From assembly GCA_965116885.1 (NCBI GenBank), contig OZ220741.1, positions 608,001 to 672,000 of the forward strand: a stretch of DNA of 64,000 bases, written 5' to 3'. The position numbers were made by a program. Below, one piece after another: positions 33,001 through 54,000 of this stretch (positions are counted from its first letter, which is position 1; each line of letters starts with the position of its first letter). This stretch comes from Candidatus Latescibacterota bacterium (GTDB lineage: Bacteria > Latescibacterota > UBA2968).

Positions 33001-36000
33001 ATCTTTATTGTGCGCGATGATCGCCCCTGCGATTTGCTCTTCCAGTGCAGCGACATGACCTGGCAAGCCTACAACAGTTGGCCTACCAACGAGTGGTCTC
33101 TTTATCACAACGACGAGAATGGCTACACGGGATATAAGAAAAGGAAAAAGTGGAGCACCAACGCGAACGATACCGGGTGGGTGAGTTTTGACCGTCCCTA
33201 CGCCCAGTTCTGCATGGATCATCTGGTCAAGAATCCCAAGTCCCAGGGTTCGGGCGAGTTTCTTCTTTGGGAATTCCCCCTCTCCTACTGGATAGAGCAG
33301 CAGGGGTACGATGTATCGTATACCTCAAATGTGGATACGCACAGGCACGGTCCGCGATTGCAGCGCACGAAAGGCTTCATCTCCGTGGGCCATGACGAGT
33401 ATTGGACCCGGGAGATGTACGACAACGTCAGCGCGGCTCGGGATGCCGGTGTCAACCTTGCGTTCCTGAGTGGCAATTCGGTTTGGGGTGTGGTGCCTTT
33501 GCTGCCCTCTGCCGAGGGGCAGTCCCACCGGATCATGCGCAGGGAAGGCGTGTTCCTTGGCGAGGAACTCAGCAAGATGTTGAACAAGAGACGCGGCACC
33601 CCCGCCAAGTATCCAGCGGGGCCGGACGGGGCACTGCTTATGGGTGGACGTACGGCCGGTATCGGCGGCGGCGGAGACTGGGTCTGCGTCAAGCCCGATC
33701 ACTGGCTGTATGAAGGCACGGGCATGAAAGAAGGCGACACGATCAAAGGTCTGGTGGGATGGGAATGGCACGGTTCTCCCCCTTACGATCAGCCCGGGAT
33801 GGAAATCCTGGCGAAAGGCGCCACGAAAAATAACCAGGGAAAAGTCAAACCGCCCCATGTCGCGACGATCTACGACGGGCCCAGGAACAACTTTGTGTTC
33901 AACGCCGGGACGATCTGGTGGGCGCAAGGTTTGTCATCGCCTCCAGGCCACGTACTACCCGCGCGAGTTGCCGAGCCGCAAGGCCCGGACCCGCGCGTGC
34001 AGCGCATGATGGAGAATGTGTTCCAACAGTTTATCCAATGATGATTAAGGAGGAGAACTTGAATCTAAATACCCAGAGACCAAATATCCTGTTCATCATG
34101 ACAGATCAACAGCACGCAGACATGATGAGCTGCACAGGTAATAAGTGGTTGAAGACGCCGGCCATGGATAGCCTGGCACGAGATGGTATCCGTTTTGAGA
34201 TGGCATACGCGACAAATCCCGTATGTGTCGCAAGCCGAACCAGCATGGCCACAGGCGTCATGTCCTGTCGCCTTGGTGCGGGCAACAATGGCCCTGGCAT
34301 GGCGATCAAGCAACTCCCGCCTGAAGTGCACGATCATTCGATGGGCAAGATCATGAAGCGTGCCGGCTACGACACGTTCTATGGCGGAAAAGTGCATATG
34401 TGCCCCCCGCTGGCCCCAGAGAATGCAGGTTATGACGAATATTTCCGAAATGATCGCGAAGCACTGCCTGCGGCCTGTCTCCAATTCATGGAGAAGAAGA
34501 GAGGCAACCCCTTTTTTGCCGTAGCATCATTCATCAATCCCCACGATATCTGCTTTGCTCACATTGCCCGCAATGGCGAAGATAGGCACGGCGTGTTGGC
34601 GTTACATAAGGAGGCGTCCTCCCTTGAGATGGATGAACTTCCGCCACTTCCAGACAACTACGCGATACAGCAGAATGAGCCTGCAGCGATCGAAGCACAC
34701 CTGAATCCCAATGCGCCAACGCCCGCTATCACGATGCGGAAGGAATATGACGAGAAGGCATGGCGAATCAATCGGTGGATCTATCATCGACTTACCGAAA
34801 AAGTCGATCGCCACATCGGCGACATTCTCGACGGTTTGAAAAAAGCCGGACTCGAAGAAGACACCATTGTGATTTTCACCAGCGACCACGGCAATATGGA
34901 TGCGAGCCACAGGCTGGCATCCAAGGGTGTCTTCTATGAAGAATCGGTAGGTGTTCCGTTTATCCTCAAACACATAGGAGGCACTCCAGGTGGCCGTACG
35001 AACAGGACGCATCTGGTCTCCACAGGGCTCGATATCCTGCCCACAATTTGTGACTACGCAGGCATCAAGCAGCCTGACCATCTTCTTGGTATGAGCCTTC
35101 GCCCGCTGGCAGAGGATAGGCGTGTGGACGACTGGCGTACCTATGTGGCGTCTGAAAACCACTGGACCCGAATGATCCGAAGTCAGAGATACAAGTATTG
35201 CGCCTACGATCACGCGTTCGGGAATGAGTCACTGGTTGATATGGAGAATGACCCTGGTGAAATGCAAAACCTTGTTGATGATCCCAAATTCCAGGACGTA
35301 ATGACTGAGCATCGCAGACTCCTTGCGGATTGGAGCAACCTTTCCGAAGACAAAGACGCCTCGAAATACCTTAAGACAGGTCCAGGACCTGAAAGATAGG
35401 CTTATACAACAAGTCTATGAGATGTTTCCAGCGCCTATAGGAATATCTAATTGAGGATAACGACTGATGTCCTCAACATAACATTAGAAAATTTTAAACC
35501 CCTGGAGAGATATGCTCTTCAGGGGTTTCATTTGGATGGATTTGGGTTGCAATCTGAACGCGAACATCCCGTGCCAAAACGCGAGGACTATGTATGTGTG
35601 ATCAGATGGTATGCGCATCGCCTTTTTCCGCATTCAGGAAGTACGACTGTTGTACAGCATAAAGGTCTATATATAAACCAATAAGATTATATATAGACCT
35701 TTATTGTAGCTCTATAACATAGATTAGAGACGATCTAATTATTGTTGGACTATATATCGCCCAATTTTTTGAAAAATTGTTTGGTAATGTTTATGGTGAC
35801 ATATATATTGTGAACTCTCTCAAAAATAATTGATGATTTATACATACTCCTCCAAAATTTTGTGAATCATACATCAACCACTCAGACCTGTCCCATTAGA
35901 TGCTACGGAGTCTATTACAAACAGTCAGAGATTAAAATTTTAAAAATACTGTTTTAGACTACAAAATTCAATGAAATGACTCAAGAGGATAAAGATATGC

Positions 36001-51000: not shown

Positions 51001-54000
51001 ATAATGATGACTTTATGGTTATACCAGAAAGGGAAAGAGACGACGATGATGAAATTCAAGATGACGGATACTGAGCAAAACCTTCTGGATCGCGGCTCAA
51101 CCATGTCCCTGCATGGTGTTGAGCAGGGAACCATGCCGCGATGACAACGCCCAACCAGCCCCCAATTATACCATTGTCGCATGGATAACAGGACCGAGAT
51201 GGAGATAAGTTGACGACAGACCAAAAAATCGCTTTTTTTCACGCTTGATTGCGCCTCCGTGGAATAGAGCCAGAATTTAACAACCCGTTGATGGAGCGTA
51301 TCAGCGGGGAATTTTTTATGAGAAATCGCATGAAATCTATCGTCGCGCACAGTGCCAACCCCTATTTGCCAGCCACTGCCACCTGGATATACGACCAGAT
51401 TCGCGCACTGAAACGGTATCGCCCCATCGTCCTCACACAAACGCGCCAGAACCTGGACCGCTTTCCCACAGAAACCGTCTTATCCGCCGAAGATATCTCG
51501 TCCATTCGCAGAACAACCCTGCGCCTCATTCGCAAAATGCGCGGCACGTACGCCGGCTATGAAAACTGGCTGCGCGAACACAACGCCGCCCTCATCCACG
51601 CGCACTTTGGACAAGAGGGATACCGATGTCTCTCCGCAAAACAGCGCGCGGGCATCCCCCTCATCACCACCTTTTACGGCCTGGACATATCGGCACTTCC
51701 CCGGCAAAAAAAATGGCAAAAACGATACAAACGACTCTTTGCCGAAGGCGACCTCTTCCTGGTTGAAGGACCCTTCATGGGCGAACAACTCATCGCACTG
51801 GGATGTCCGGCCAACCGGGTAATCGTACAACACCTGGGCGTAGATCTCGACAAAATACCCTTCAGAACAGACCCCACACCCAAACAACCCATCGTATTGA
51901 CATACAGCGTATTTCGAGAAAAAAAGGGATTGAAATACGCAATCCAGGCTTATGCAAAAATAGCGAAAAAATACCCGGACGCCCAACTGCGGATGATCGG
52001 CGACGGACCTTTGCGTCCACACCTACAAGCCGAAATACGAAATCTACACCTTGAAAACCGCGTCAAAATGCTCGGCCTGCTTCCCCATCCCACCGCACTT
52101 GAAGAACTAAAACGCGCGACAATCCTCCTCTATCCCAGCGTCACAGCATCAGATGGCGACACCGAAGGCGGCGCACCCGTCGCGCTCATCGAAGCCATGG
52201 CAATGGGCGTCCCCATTGTATCGTCCCTACACGCCGACATTCCCGAAGTCGTAATCGACAAAACCTGTGGCCTATTATATCCCGAACGAGATGTCGCGGG
52301 CCTCGCTGAGGGACTGGACACCCTCCTCAGTTCCCCCGAACAATTTGGCCGCGCTGGCCGTGCCCATGTCGAAAAACAGCACAACCTGGAGAGACAAGCC
52401 GAAAAATTAGAGGTGATTTATGATAGGGTCCTGAAAAAAACATAAAGAGCGGGACGGCACAGGGGCCGTCCCCTACAACAACACCTTCTGGATCGCGGCT
52501 TTAAGCATGCCGCGATGACGATTACGACCCTATATAGACTCGCTCAGTAATGGATAACCTGCACCAATGGTTATCCTTGACATCCGTGACTATTGACACA
52601 ATTTATGGCAGTGTCATTTCCCGCGTACTTAAACCGGAGACAAAAATGCCTGAACACCCCAACCTCGTATTTATATTCCCCGATGAATATCGCAGACAGG
52701 CCATGGGATTCATGAACGAAGACCCCGTCATAACGCCCAACATCGACCGATTTGCGTCTGAAAGCCTCGTATTAACCGACGCCGTAAGCACCAGACCCGT
52801 ATGCAGCCCATATCGGGCAATGCTCTTCACCGGACAATATCCCCACGCCAATGGCGTACTCAGCAACGTCAACTCCACCACGGTACAATACGAAAACTAC
52901 CTGCGAGAAAACGCACGGTGCTTCTCAGACGTATTGCACGACGCTGGCTACAACCAGGCGTACCTGGGCAAACTACACCTCGATCCCCCCAACGAGCAAT
53001 ACGAATACACCGAAGGACCGAGAGGAAATGGCGTCATCTGGGACTCATACACCCCACCGGGACCGCGCAGACACGGATATGACTTCTGGTATTCCTACGG
53101 CTGTTGCGACTGGCACTTCAACCCCCACTATTGGACCGGCAATGACCCCATTGAAAAGCGCATTGAACCGCGGGAATGGTCTCCCAAACACGAAACCGAC
53201 ATCGCAATAAACTACATCCGCAACAAAGGTGGCAAATACAGAGATCCCAAAAAACCATTCTCACTCGTCATATCCCACAACCCACCGCACATGCCATTCA
53301 AACAAGTACCGGAAAAATACGTCGCCCAATACGGCGACGTCACCCATGAAGACCTCTTGACGCGCCCCAACGTACCCACAGATGAACGCGGCGACAGCGC
53401 CCGCGAAAACGCGAAACACTACTTCGCCATGGTAACCGGCGTCGATGAAAACTTCGGACGCATCCTGGACTGTTTAAAAACAGAGGGCCTGGAAGAAAAC
53501 ACCATCGTAGTCTTCACCTCTGACCACGGTGAAATGATGGGCAGCCACGGCCGCATAGGCAAAACCGTACACTACGAAGAATCCTTCACCGTCCCATTTA
53601 TCATCCGCTGGCCCGGAAAAATCACACCCGGCACAGATGACCTGTTAATCGGCACACCCGACTTGATGCCCACATTGCTCAACCTCATGGGCGTGGGACA
53701 GGTCCCCGACAGCGTCCAGGGAACGGATTACTCCGACATCCTCCTCGGCAAAGAAAGCACGCGCCCGACCTCTGCACTCTACCTCAACGTAATGCCCAAC
53801 GACCCTGCGGGCGGATCGCGCGGCGTGCGCACACACCGACACACGTATGTGATCACGCGAACGCCCGAAGGCGAAGAAATAATCCTCCACGACAACATCG
53901 CGGACCCCTATCAACTCCAAAACATCGCTGGCGATCATCCCGGCCTTGAAGCAGAACTTGAAAAAGAAATGAACAACTGGTTGGCAAAAACCGGCGACCC

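Follow-up and report, generated by a model that had tools for sequence, protein, structure and literature searches.

A CARF-AAA+ sigma-54 activator that probably switches on type III-B CRISPR-Cas genes upon infection in a Candidatus Latescibacterota bacterium

The genome of a Candidatus Latescibacterota bacterium harbours a type III-B CRISPR-Cas locus headed by a gene for a CARF-AAA+-HTH protein, and this protein probably lets infection turn on expression of the defence genes. In the best explanation of the locus, to which a probability of roughly 0.55 is assigned, this protein of 547 aa serves the CRISPR locus specifically as its sigma-54 enhancer-binding protein, and its CARF domain senses cyclic oligoadenylate (cOA) made by Cas10 and thereby triggers sigma-54-dependent activation. 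The stretch of DNA analysed, 64,000 nucleotides of contig OZ220741.1, is called the window, and its features of interest are the following.

35997-37640, + strand: CARF5(NE0113)-AAA+-HTH sigma-54 enhancer-binding protein, 547 aa (Pfam, NCBIfam, PADLOC, motifs, models)
37727-37761, no strand: putative upstream activator site of P1, inverted repeat GCATTTTTGCC-N9-GGCAAAAATGC, aligning with the paired sites of other loci
37762-37825, no strand: conserved A/T-rich block, TTGAACAT ... AAAAAAATATCACACAAC..TTG, between the P1 activator site and the promoter
37826-37856, + strand: terminator-like hairpin and T run (terminator scan), predicted to terminate the activator transcript immediately ahead of the -24 element of P1
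37860-37875, + strand: sigma-54 promoter P1 (-24/-12, TGGCACGCGATTTGCA), 194 nt before the cas6 ATG at 38054
38054-39013, + strand: cas6 (PF10040 E 1.3e-18; PADLOC Cas6 330.5 bits)
39061-39095, no strand: putative upstream activator sites of P2, GTGCAAAATTGCAC (39061-39074) and GTGCAGAAATGTAC (39082-39095)
39194-39209, + strand: sigma-54 promoter P2 (TGGCACGCGGATTGCA), 78 nt before the DUF1232 gene at 39272
39272-39622, + strand: small DUF1232 protein, first gene after P2 (PF06803 E 3.2e-12)
39883-47443, + strand: type III-B effector genes as a block (NCBIfam scores above cut-offs)
39883-40722, + strand: cmr1 (NCBIfam above cut-off)
40733-42619, + strand: cas10/cmr2 (NCBIfam above cut-off; GGDD at aa 427-430)
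42594-43763, + strand: cmr3 (NCBIfam above cut-off)
43760-45010, + strand: CARF7-RelE, Cami1-like (PADLOC CARF7--CARF_RelE, 341.9 bits, full length)
45033-45995, + strand: cmr4 (NCBIfam above cut-off)
45955-46368, + strand: cmr5 (NCBIfam above cut-off)
46238 (or a later start)-47443, + strand: cmr6 (NCBIfam above cut-off)
47451-48170, + strand: remnant of a broken CARF7-DUF2103 gene behind cmr6 (PADLOC profile positions 120-255 of 353)
48461-50877, + strand: CRISPR array with 32 repeats (37 nt each, ending in ...ATTGAAAC) and 31 spacers of 33-48 nt
50878-51313, no strand: junction where relatives have promoter P3, a repeat and PrimPol-cas1-cas2, a module missing here (comparison with relative L049)

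Several claims of the initial annotation are borne out by these data, namely the fusion of an NE0113 CARF domain with a sigma-54 AAA+ module and an HTH, the Cmr identity of the operon, the GGDD motif of Cas10, the two promoters, which are exact in the sequence, and the presence of rpoN (427.9 bits, above its cut-off).

The activator ORF spans 35976/35997-37640, and its start was placed at 35997 because homologues begin with MQHKL. The CARF domain (aa 1-205) is followed by a long linker helix (aa 210-237), the AAA+ core and lid (aa 244-505) and a Fis-type HTH (about aa 511-545). Pfam matches, scored on the 554-aa frame, are Cas_NE0113 (E 2.7e-37), Sigma54_activat (E 1.1e-62), AAA_lid_14 and HTH_8, and TIGR02584 of NCBIfam scores 174.1 bits against a cut-off of 80.65. 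PADLOC assigns CARF5--CARF to aa 1-202 and RtcR_PspF2 to the AAA-HTH part only (aa 227-545, 345 bits). Structure models reached a pLDDT of 92.2 for the CARF domain and 81.3 for the whole protein. The CARF domain carries the motifs GNTPQ and AGGRK, and the ATPase and sigma-54-contact motifs are intact (Walker A GETGTGKE, Walker B LYLDEIGE, L1 loop GAYTGQ). The L1 loop thus deviates from GAFTGA, which was counted against the proposed mechanism; a loose pattern, GA[FY][TS][GD]x, recovered such a loop in 64 of 94 family proteins longer than 480 aa, the other 30 giving no match. The genome encodes 25 full sigma-54 activators, this one included.

The first gene after P2 encodes a DUF1232 protein without a PADLOC match, which is present in 8 of the 10 other loci having enough downstream DNA (74-97% identity). 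Cas10 is the only one found in the genome and contains no HD dipeptide anywhere in the protein. The gene originally labelled csx1 had to be renamed, as it encodes a Cami1-like CARF7-RelE protein with 8phb/8phj as best solved relative (E 1.1e-14). The CARF7-DUF2103 remnant lacks its first ~132 codons and has an in-frame TAA at 47892-47894; the intact gene of relative L030 encodes 374 aa, and the two share 92% identity over 240 aa. The array had been described as having at least 28 repeats; the count is now 32, of which repeats 15-26 are degenerate. The genome is a single contig with 98% completeness, and searches of it gave no cas1, cas2 or rtcB. For cas1 and cas2 this agrees with the initial annotation, which was however incomplete: their absence is a secondary loss of an operon standing under a P3-type promoter in relatives. 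Two of these, L049 and L050, have a third promoter of the same build before PrimPol-cas1-cas2, and homology to L049 picks up again at 51314, inside a glycosyltransferase gene.

P1 and P2 are both exact TGGCACGCG-N2-TTGCA promoters of the -24/-12 type. Exact TGGCACGCGNNTTGCA occurs only three times in the whole 5.56-Mb genome, at P1 (37860), at P2 (39194) and at contig position 4261077, the last copy being without upstream palindromes. The palindromic sites reported upstream of both promoters were indeed seen and are conserved across related loci. The two P2 sites lie 21 nt apart, start to start. The P1 site is a variant of the paired GTGCA-N4-TGCAC sites of the family, and its departure from the consensus was counted against the mechanism. 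One architecture is common to 14 promoter regions, including the A/T-rich block, possibly a DNA-bending site; the genome has three HU/IHF-family genes, none above the IHF-alpha cut-off. Nine of the 12 loci retain the terminator-like hairpin (dG -10.4 to -11.2).

Comparison with related loci, which are kin and not independent samples, showed co-inheritance of the CARF-AAA+-HTH protein with the palindromes and -24/-12 promoters, both in 12 related loci and in a second lineage. As claimed before, cas6 adjoins the activator gene, in 12/12 fetched loci. All 11 loci with downstream DNA have a -24/-12 element after the activator gene, which replaces the earlier count of 8 of 11. Thirteen loci, 231,052 nt together, contain TGGCACG-N4-TTGC[AG] 18 times in the direction of the genes and one time in the opposite direction (shuffle mean 0.05). 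GTGCA-N4-TGCAC was counted 20 times there (shuffle mean 0.17), and every copy lies 103-260 nt upstream of a -24/-12 element. Across the whole 5.56 Mb this palindrome, with 5 copies, is not more frequent than expected by chance, and its meaning therefore lies in position and conservation only. The regulator/cas6 cassette is constant, while the effector module varies (III-B, III-A and two III-D forms). A Cas10 match was found in 13 of 14 genomes with the fusion, the 14th being cut by a contig end. Against the mechanism, 17 Cas10-bearing genomes of the phylum are without the regulator. In the second, Kryptonium-like lineage the fusion is the last gene of a III-A operon, and downstream of it come palindromes of its own, a -24/-12 element and a type I-B operon; GAFTGA is present in 12/12 of its activators. 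HTH and palindromes (TCGG-N4-CCGA type) both differ from those of the first lineage, as expected for a cognate pair.

In the proposed mechanism, Cas10, with GGDD intact and without HD nuclease, would make cOA upon encountering target RNA. The N-terminal CARF5 domain would be the sensor and most likely binds this product. RtcR and NtrC1-type activators likewise possess a long helical linker, and by analogy with them binding may free the AAA+ core for assembly. The Fis-type HTH would bind the paired palindromes, 21 nt apart and about 100-130 nt upstream of P1 and P2, and the AAA+ core would spend ATP to open sigma-54 holoenzyme complexes at both. P1 would then drive cas6, and P2 the DUF1232 gene, the Cmr genes, the CARF-RelE effector and probably the array, infection leading to more crRNA processing and effector expression in what would be a feed-forward loop. 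In relatives the same circuit would also raise spacer acquisition (PrimPol-cas1-cas2), and in the second lineage a type I-B system. The link between regulator and promoters is well supported, and P1 and P2 are presumably both used.

Transcription from a sigma-54 promoter normally requires its activator. Since the only Cas10 is encoded behind P2, the promoter that it should induce, a pure positive loop cannot start itself and basal Cmr expression must therefore be assumed; the region before cmr1 showed no convincing sigma-70-like site. This start-up problem would be gone if the ligand-free activator were active and kept the locus expressed, cOA binding shutting transcription off and the CARF domain possibly cleaving cOA as a ring nuclease, limiting the toxic CARF-RelE response. 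Among the folds nearest to the CARF model are those of the ring nucleases Crn1 Sso2081 and Sis0455 (Z about 15), and the NCBI name of the CARF family is 'ring nuclease Csm6'. However, RtcR, NtrC1 and DctD, which likewise combine an N-terminal sensor with a long helical linker, are kept inactive until they receive their signal, and the regulated operon of the second lineage is a separate type I-B system, for which induction fits better than shut-off. An off-switch is thus unlikely, and ligand binding would rather turn the activator on.

The ligand is probably cOA from the locus's own Cas10. GxTPQ was found in 118/120 and AGGRK in 120/120 CARF family proteins, fused or stand-alone. The best 50 VIA-align entries for the CARF model are all CARF-domain proteins associated with CRISPR, the majority having either a structure solved with cOA or the name of a ring nuclease (Z 16.2 for the Cad1 CARF, 15.4 for Crn1, 13.2 for Csm6 and 10.9 for Csa3). 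That the domain senses something else is suggested by RtcR, the only studied CARF-AAA+-HTH protein, which in the available parts of two reports responds to tRNA fragments and needs RtcA/RtcB binding (PMC7790460, PMC9650030). This reading is rather unlikely: the Pfam search gave no RtcR-type CARF match at E up to 0.01, the PADLOC RtcR models align with the AAA-HTH part only, the genome has no detectable rtcB, the pocket motifs are those common to CARF5 proteins, and the closest fold, the Cad1 CARF, was solved with cA4 and cA6. The modelled CARF domain thus looks like the cOA-binding kind and not the RtcR kind.

The CARF domain might also be mainly a cOA sponge or ring nuclease, with the AAA+-HTH part responding to growth state, stress or some other unrelated cue and transcription being uncoupled from CRISPR signalling. 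A cas operon of Myxococcus is, in the part of the report available, under sigma-54 control by the CARF-less starvation regulator Nla28 (PMC9765219), but an in-frame CARF-AAA+ fusion across two lineages, always within cas loci, is hard to explain in this way, which makes it improbable. Very improbable is that another of the 24 further activators serves P1 and P2 and the neighbourhood is coincidental, as gene, palindromes and promoters stand together in 11/11 loci and HTH and palindromes differ alike in the second lineage, even with at least 24 TGGCACG-N4-TTGC[AG] sites in the genome.

The activator, here taken to be switched on by cOA, resembles RtcR and RtcR_PspF activators in its CARF sensor, sigma-54 AAA+ core and Fis-type HTH. 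Genes of this type stand at the head of a defence or repair operon that they presumably activate, adjoining rtcBA, restriction-modification systems and CoCoNuT superoperons (PMC4012209, PMC11090510; available parts). It differs in its CARF5/NE0113 sensor with the K/R pocket motif AGGRK; RtcR models of PADLOC align only from profile position 152 onward, and NF038308 scores 306.6 bits, below its cut-off of 650. Its presumed targets, in a genome without detectable rtcB, are the cas genes of a type III locus. Stand-alone NE0113/CARF5 proteins of type III loci (CARF-HTH, CARF-REC-HTH) share the CARF family (40-48% identity), and Cad1, a CARF5-adenosine deaminase, provides the best structural match, but none of these has a sigma-54 AAA+ core and Fis HTH as output. 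According to the accessible part of the 2014 census, NE0113/CARF5 proteins of III-A and III-B loci are CARF-HTH proteins lacking a toxin and are predicted to regulate transcription; the tables of the census, as far as available, hold no pfam09623+pfam00158 protein, and PADLOC-DB 2.0 has no full-length model of the CARF5-AAA+-HTH architecture. The Nla28-controlled cas operon of Myxococcus xanthus also has a -24/-12 promoter with tandem activator sites (PMC9765219, available part), but Nla28 is a starvation-response activator without CARF sensor, encoded outside the CRISPR locus. Csa3 likewise wires a CARF receptor to cas gene transcription, its CARF matching the activator model. Csa3 proteins are cA4-binding CARF-wHTH factors of archaeal type I-A loci. 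As described in the available parts of three papers, their targets include adaptation genes, and they take part in cross-talk from type III to type I (PMC8844856, PMC8699464, PMC7480081). Csa3 is a simple winged-helix factor working with the ordinary transcription machinery, whereas the bacterial activator would have an ATP-driven sigma-54 output, acting at a distance on -24/-12 promoters.

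The gene at the head of the locus encodes a single 547-aa protein in which a CARF domain, a sigma-54-type AAA+ module and an HTH are fused, as initially annotated; Cas_NE0113, Sigma54_activat, AAA_lid_14 and HTH_8 were all matched in Pfam. The following features were found in this part of the window:

35997-37640, forward strand: regulator gene (Pfam, NCBIfam, PADLOC)
38054-39013, forward strand: cas6 (Pfam, PADLOC)
39272-39622, forward strand: DUF1232 gene (Pfam)
39883-47443, forward strand: cmr1, cas10/cmr2, cmr3, CARF gene, cmr4, cmr5 and cmr6, in this order (NCBIfam)
47451-48170, forward strand: broken CARF7-DUF2103 gene (PADLOC, comparison with the related locus L030)
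48461-50877, forward strand: CRISPR array, 32 repeats of 37 nt

The assignment to type III-B (Cmr) holds, with Cas6, the array and six Cmr proteins that all score above their NCBIfam cut-offs (bits/cut-off: Cmr1 51.7/28.65, Cas10/Cmr2 168.4/79.4, Cmr3 138.9/100.4, Cmr4 247.1/87, Cmr5 62.6/27.9, Cmr6 164/51.1). Cas10 indeed retains the GGDD motif at aa 427-430, while an HD dipeptide occurs nowhere in its sequence; signalling should therefore carry much of the function of this system. The CARF gene between cmr3 and cmr4 had been called csx1 in the initial annotation, but instead matches PADLOC CARF7--CARF_RelE over its full length (aa 1-395, 341.9 bits). Its best solved relatives are chains 8phb/8phj (E 1.1e-14, match confined to aa 52-270), titled in the fold search as cA4-bound Cami1, and Pfam recognizes the CARF part of the protein only. 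The gene product is better described as a putative Cami1-like CARF-RelE effector. The DUF1232 protein (116 aa) contains hydrophobic segments; whatever the effector type, its gene is conserved in first position after the sigma-54 promoter. PADLOC yields no match for it, and no link between DUF1232 and CRISPR was found in the literature; a role as an induced membrane effector or as an accessory protein is conceivable.

The broken CARF7-DUF2103 gene shares 92% identity with its intact 374-aa counterpart in L030. Its first ~132 N-terminal codons are missing, as in the related locus L028, and it carries an in-frame TAA at 47892-47894. Intact copies of 374-380 aa occupy the same place in L030, L038 and L039, and the remnant in the window looks like a scar of effector-module exchange. 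Within the array, repeats 15-26 (49538-50416) have 3-7 substitutions each and both ends are nearly perfect, with the repeat variants CTACTG at the 5' end and CTAATG at the 3' end. This pattern suggests two joined arrays or an internal rearrangement. The first 26 nt of spacer 1 had no exact match in viral contigs, and none of the 24-nt spacer prefixes was found elsewhere in the genome. The 3' end of cas6 (38991-39016) harbours 3.7 tandem copies of the 7-nt unit GAAGGGT, which encode a short repetitive C-terminal tail; the cas6 genes of relatives end in other versions of the repeat.

The N-terminus of the regulator is a member of the CARF superfamily, family CARF5/NE0113, showing the Rossmann-like CARF fold with its pocket motifs. 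Profile scores are above threshold (PF09623, 129 bits, cut-off 23; TIGR02584, 174.1 bits, cut-off 80.65). The domain was modelled with a pLDDT of 92.2 and its best fold match is the CARF domain of Cad1, solved with cA4 and cA6 (Z 16.2, rmsd 2.9 A, 163 residues), followed by the ring nucleases Sso2081 and Sis0455 (Z about 15), Csm6 (Z 13) and Csa3 (Z 10.9). The best 50 fold matches listed are all CRISPR-associated CARF-domain proteins, mostly solved with cyclic oligoadenylate (cOA) or named ring nucleases. A profile search of solved structures with a mixed alignment, A1, returned AAA+ proteins only and is thus uninformative on the CARF part. The regulator has the pocket motifs GNTPQ in strand 1 and AGGRK, which includes the K/R residue, in strand 4. 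Among 120 family proteins, fused or unfused, GxTPQ is kept in 118 and AGGRK in all 120. The sensor half is cOA-receptor-like in its fold.

The AAA+ core of the regulator covers the complete PF00158 profile (positions 1-168 of 168, E 1.1e-62), with AAA_lid_14 besides, and is linked to the CARF domain by a 28-residue helix (aa 210-237) in the regulator model. The Walker A (GETGTGKE) and Walker B (LYLDEIGE) motifs are both intact, and the loop that contacts sigma-54 has the sequence GAYTGQ against the canonical GAFTGA; a tyrosine at this place of the loop may work. Among 94 long family proteins GAYTGQ was found in 29, GAFTGA in 10, GAFTDA in 8 and other variants in 17, while 30 were missed by the pattern. 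The C-terminal HTH is of the Fis type (HTH_8). The genome, a single contig of 5.56 Mb, encodes 25 full sigma-54 activators, and the presence of rpoN was confirmed at 427.9 bits, above the cut-off. PADLOC, whose CARF models we take to derive from the 2020 CARF census, divides the regulator in two: aa 1-202 match CARF5--CARF (242.7 bits), whereas aa 227-545 align with the RtcR_PspF2 CARF_AAA_HTH model at positions 152-473 alone. None of the PADLOC models spans both halves.

The promoter motif TGGCACGCG-N2-TTGCA, previously noted before cas6 and before the DUF1232 gene, is exact at 37860 (P1) and 39194 (P2). The whole genome holds three exact copies of TGGCACGCG-N2-TTGCA. For comparison, homologous loci were collected from 12 further genomes of the phylum, giving 13 loci and 231,052 nt with the window included. 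The regulator gene is followed by a -24/-12 element in 11 of the 11 related loci with downstream DNA, the twelfth stopping at a contig break. In the 13 loci, TGGCACG-N4-TTGC[AG] has 18 copies on the strand of the genes and a single one on the opposite strand (shuffle mean 0.05), and the palindrome GTGCA-N4-TGCAC has 20 copies (shuffle mean 0.17), each of them 103-260 nt upstream of a -24/-12 element and typically in pairs 21 nt apart. Across the whole genome the palindrome does not exceed chance expectation (5 copies), so the weight rests on its position and conservation. The 14 aligned promoter regions follow one plan, in which paired palindromes are succeeded by TTGAACAT, an A/T-rich block and TTTGGCACGC-N3-TTGCAT. 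The upstream sites of P1 are a variant of the palindrome pair, GCATTTTTGCC-N9-GGCAAAAATGC. Immediately 5' of its -24 element a hairpin with a T run is present in 9 of 12 loci, and read-through from the regulator gene is therefore probably halted there. Cognate sites and promoters are thus conserved, and the regulator shows the features of an enhancer-binding protein: AAA+ core, HTH, cognate upstream sites, -24/-12 promoters and rpoN in the same genome. The pattern of a sigma-54 activator locus is real and not a product of chance.

The third exact copy of the motif lies at contig position 4261077 (L040:3968-3983), about 1 kb downstream of rpoN and before a gene with a signal-peptide-like start. 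It was left out of the regulon since none of the palindromes is found there. The 5' leader of cas6 (37905-37975) contains a GC-rich hairpin, ACCCCC...GGGGGT, that is kept in L030 and L039. Its likeness by eye to a decayed CRISPR repeat was discarded, as 86 of 1000 shuffles equalled the local-alignment score.

Of the 120 best clusters retrieved with the CARF part, 102 are fused proteins; among the unfused ones, NE0113 proteins of 360-400 aa come nearest, at about 40-46% identity. Within the phylum sample the fusion is encoded in 13 of 167 other genomes. A Cas10 match was obtained in 13 of the 14 fusion genomes, the window's included, the exception being cut by a contig end; 17 Cas10-bearing genomes of the sample lack the fusion. 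In all 12 fetched loci cas6 adjoins the regulator gene, upstream or downstream, and DUF1232 comes next in 8 of the 10 loci whose sequence reaches far enough. The fusion is strictly confined to cas loci. The effector modules beside it are of four kinds: III-B in the window and L028, III-A Csm in L030, L031 and, more distantly, L033, III-D with Csx10/Csx19 in L035, L036 and L038, and a second III-D form, marked by a fused TIGR03986 RAMP, in L032, L037 and L039. Identity in the flanks of the locus remains about 90%, in contrast to the replaced interior. The exchanged part corresponds to 39623-47443 of the window, with cas6 and DUF1232 on one side and CARF7-DUF2103 and the array on the other (L028-L039). 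Locus comparison thus indicates a constant regulator cassette with apparently exchanged effector modules. In L038 an IS5 transposase gene lies just behind DUF1232.

A second clade of Latescibacterota fusions shares 62-68% identity with the window's protein in the CARF domain and 42-46% in the AAA+ core. The window's core is 42-51% identical to those of the 24 other activators of the genome, so the second clade is no closer. In the AAA+ tree the nearest neighbour of each fusion clade is a different ordinary activator (support 94/95 and 94/66). Two independent fusions are nevertheless not shown, because a single clade of Latescibacterota fusions was not rejected in the AU test (p 0.136). The proteins P0066 and P0082 group with P0099 and P0102 in the CARF tree (95/94) and with the window's clade by their AAA+ core (100/98), a conflict that suggests recombination between the gene halves within the family.

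As initially annotated, cas1 and cas2 are missing; neither has a match in the window's genome. Behind the array of the closest relative (L028/L049) and of L030/L050, another palindrome pair with TGGCACGCTT-N3-TTGC was found, flanked by CRISPR repeats. Downstream of this third promoter, P3, come a repeat, a TPR-primase-polymerase gene, cas1 and cas2 (L049:162-3924; L050:199-3828). Homology of the window to the closest relative resumes only at 51314, within a glycosyltransferase gene (junction 50878-51313). The adaptation operon and its promoter were therefore lost in the window, which explains the lack of cas1 and cas2.

A divergent fusion, P0162, with a CARF part 43% identical, leads to 12 further fused clusters, one of which bears the name of Candidatus Kryptonium and has 'ring nuclease Csm6' as its sole annotation. 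All 12 have GAFTGA, GSTPQ and AGGRK. One CARF origin for both lineages was not rejected (p 0.437). The metagenome loci L054 (2543-19823), L055 and L056 of this lineage start with cas6, csm1-5 and an APE2256-family CARF gene, followed by the fusion gene; in L056 the csm genes are partly decayed and csm1 is cut short. Behind the fusion gene lie two palindromes of another kind, TCGG-N4-CCGA or GCCG-N6-CGGC, the -24/-12 element TTTGGCA(T/C)AGT-N3-TTG(C/A), a conserved small hydrophobic ORF of about 45 aa and a DUF4258 gene. Next comes a complete type I-B operon of cas8b, cas7, cas5, cas3, cas4 and cas1. Judged by gene content, the presumably regulated operon (I-B) belongs to a different CRISPR system than the would-be signal maker (III-A).

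It is proposed that type III cOA directly gates enhancer-dependent sigma-54 transcription via a CARF5-AAA+-HTH receptor. Together with the palindromic sites and the tightly closed -24/-12 promoters, this receptor would form a portable cassette that turns on, upon infection, crRNA processing, any one of four Cas10 effector modules, spacer acquisition through PrimPol-cas1-cas2 and, in the other lineage, an entire type I-B system. We give this reading a probability of roughly 0.45, somewhat short of even. RtcR and NtrC1-type activators are under negative control by their sensor. We infer that cOA made by Cas10 binds the CARF dimer of the regulator; by analogy with these activators, binding would free the AAA+ core to assemble, upon which transcription from P1 and P2 would rise. 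The weak point is start-up: the sole Cas10 found in the genome sits behind P2, and basal expression or basal activator activity is therefore needed. This same problem speaks for an off-switch, in which cOA turns the activator off rather than on, but the second lineage is free of it and favours induction as the general logic, leaving the off-switch improbable.

Known targets of type III CRISPR signalling are enzymes that the cell already contains and, in archaea, the simple factor Csa3. Induction by cOA through this receptor, if true, would add a third class of cOA output, besides nucleases and other effectors and simple CARF-HTH factors. If a bacterial receptor linked the alarm molecule to a sigma-54 promoter, ATP-driven and normally silent, the response would gain an all-or-none transcriptional arm, and this would explain how costly or toxic type III modules stay low until needed. 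Such a receptor would also yield a cOA-responsive gene switch. Since the components are small and defined (one protein, a 14-bp palindrome pair, a 16-bp promoter), direct tests in vitro or in a reporter host are feasible. Comparison of the loci also bears on how they are assembled: the regulator cassette is constant beside swapped effectors and, in the other lineage, a type III locus is apparently wired to a type I-B system.

No description of a CARF5-AAA+-HTH fusion was found in the literature; the supplements of the 2020 CARF census may list the architecture. In the 2014 CARF census, pfam09623 proteins are CARF-HTH, CARF-REC-HTH, LuxR-type or deaminase fusions, and pfam00158 does not appear there as a partner. 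A sigma-54 promoter of a cas operon has been described in Myxococcus, under a non-CARF activator (PMC9765219). CARF-AAA+-HTH activators are known as RtcR and RtcR-like proteins, the latter beside restriction-modification and CoCoNuT operons (PMC4012209, PMC11090510). The RtcR-type CARF is a divergent family in which the basic pocket residue is mostly absent. The RtcR-domain family is absent among the nine Pfam matches of the regulator at E up to 0.01. The NF038308 and PADLOC RtcR models align with its AAA-HTH part only, and the full-length NF038308 score of 306.6 bits stays below the cut-off of 650. RtcR targets rtcBA, whereas the window's genome has no RtcB match. Transcription of cas genes responsive to cOA is known for archaeal Csa3 (PMC8844856, PMC8699464, PMC7480081). 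Csa3 consists of a CARF domain and a winged HTH without ATPase, unlike the regulator with its AAA+ core and Fis-type HTH, and the likeness is limited to the CARF fold. The regulator is rated as an RtcR-type architecture in which the sensor is a canonical one of type III systems and the task, similar to that of Csa3, is carried out by way of sigma-54.
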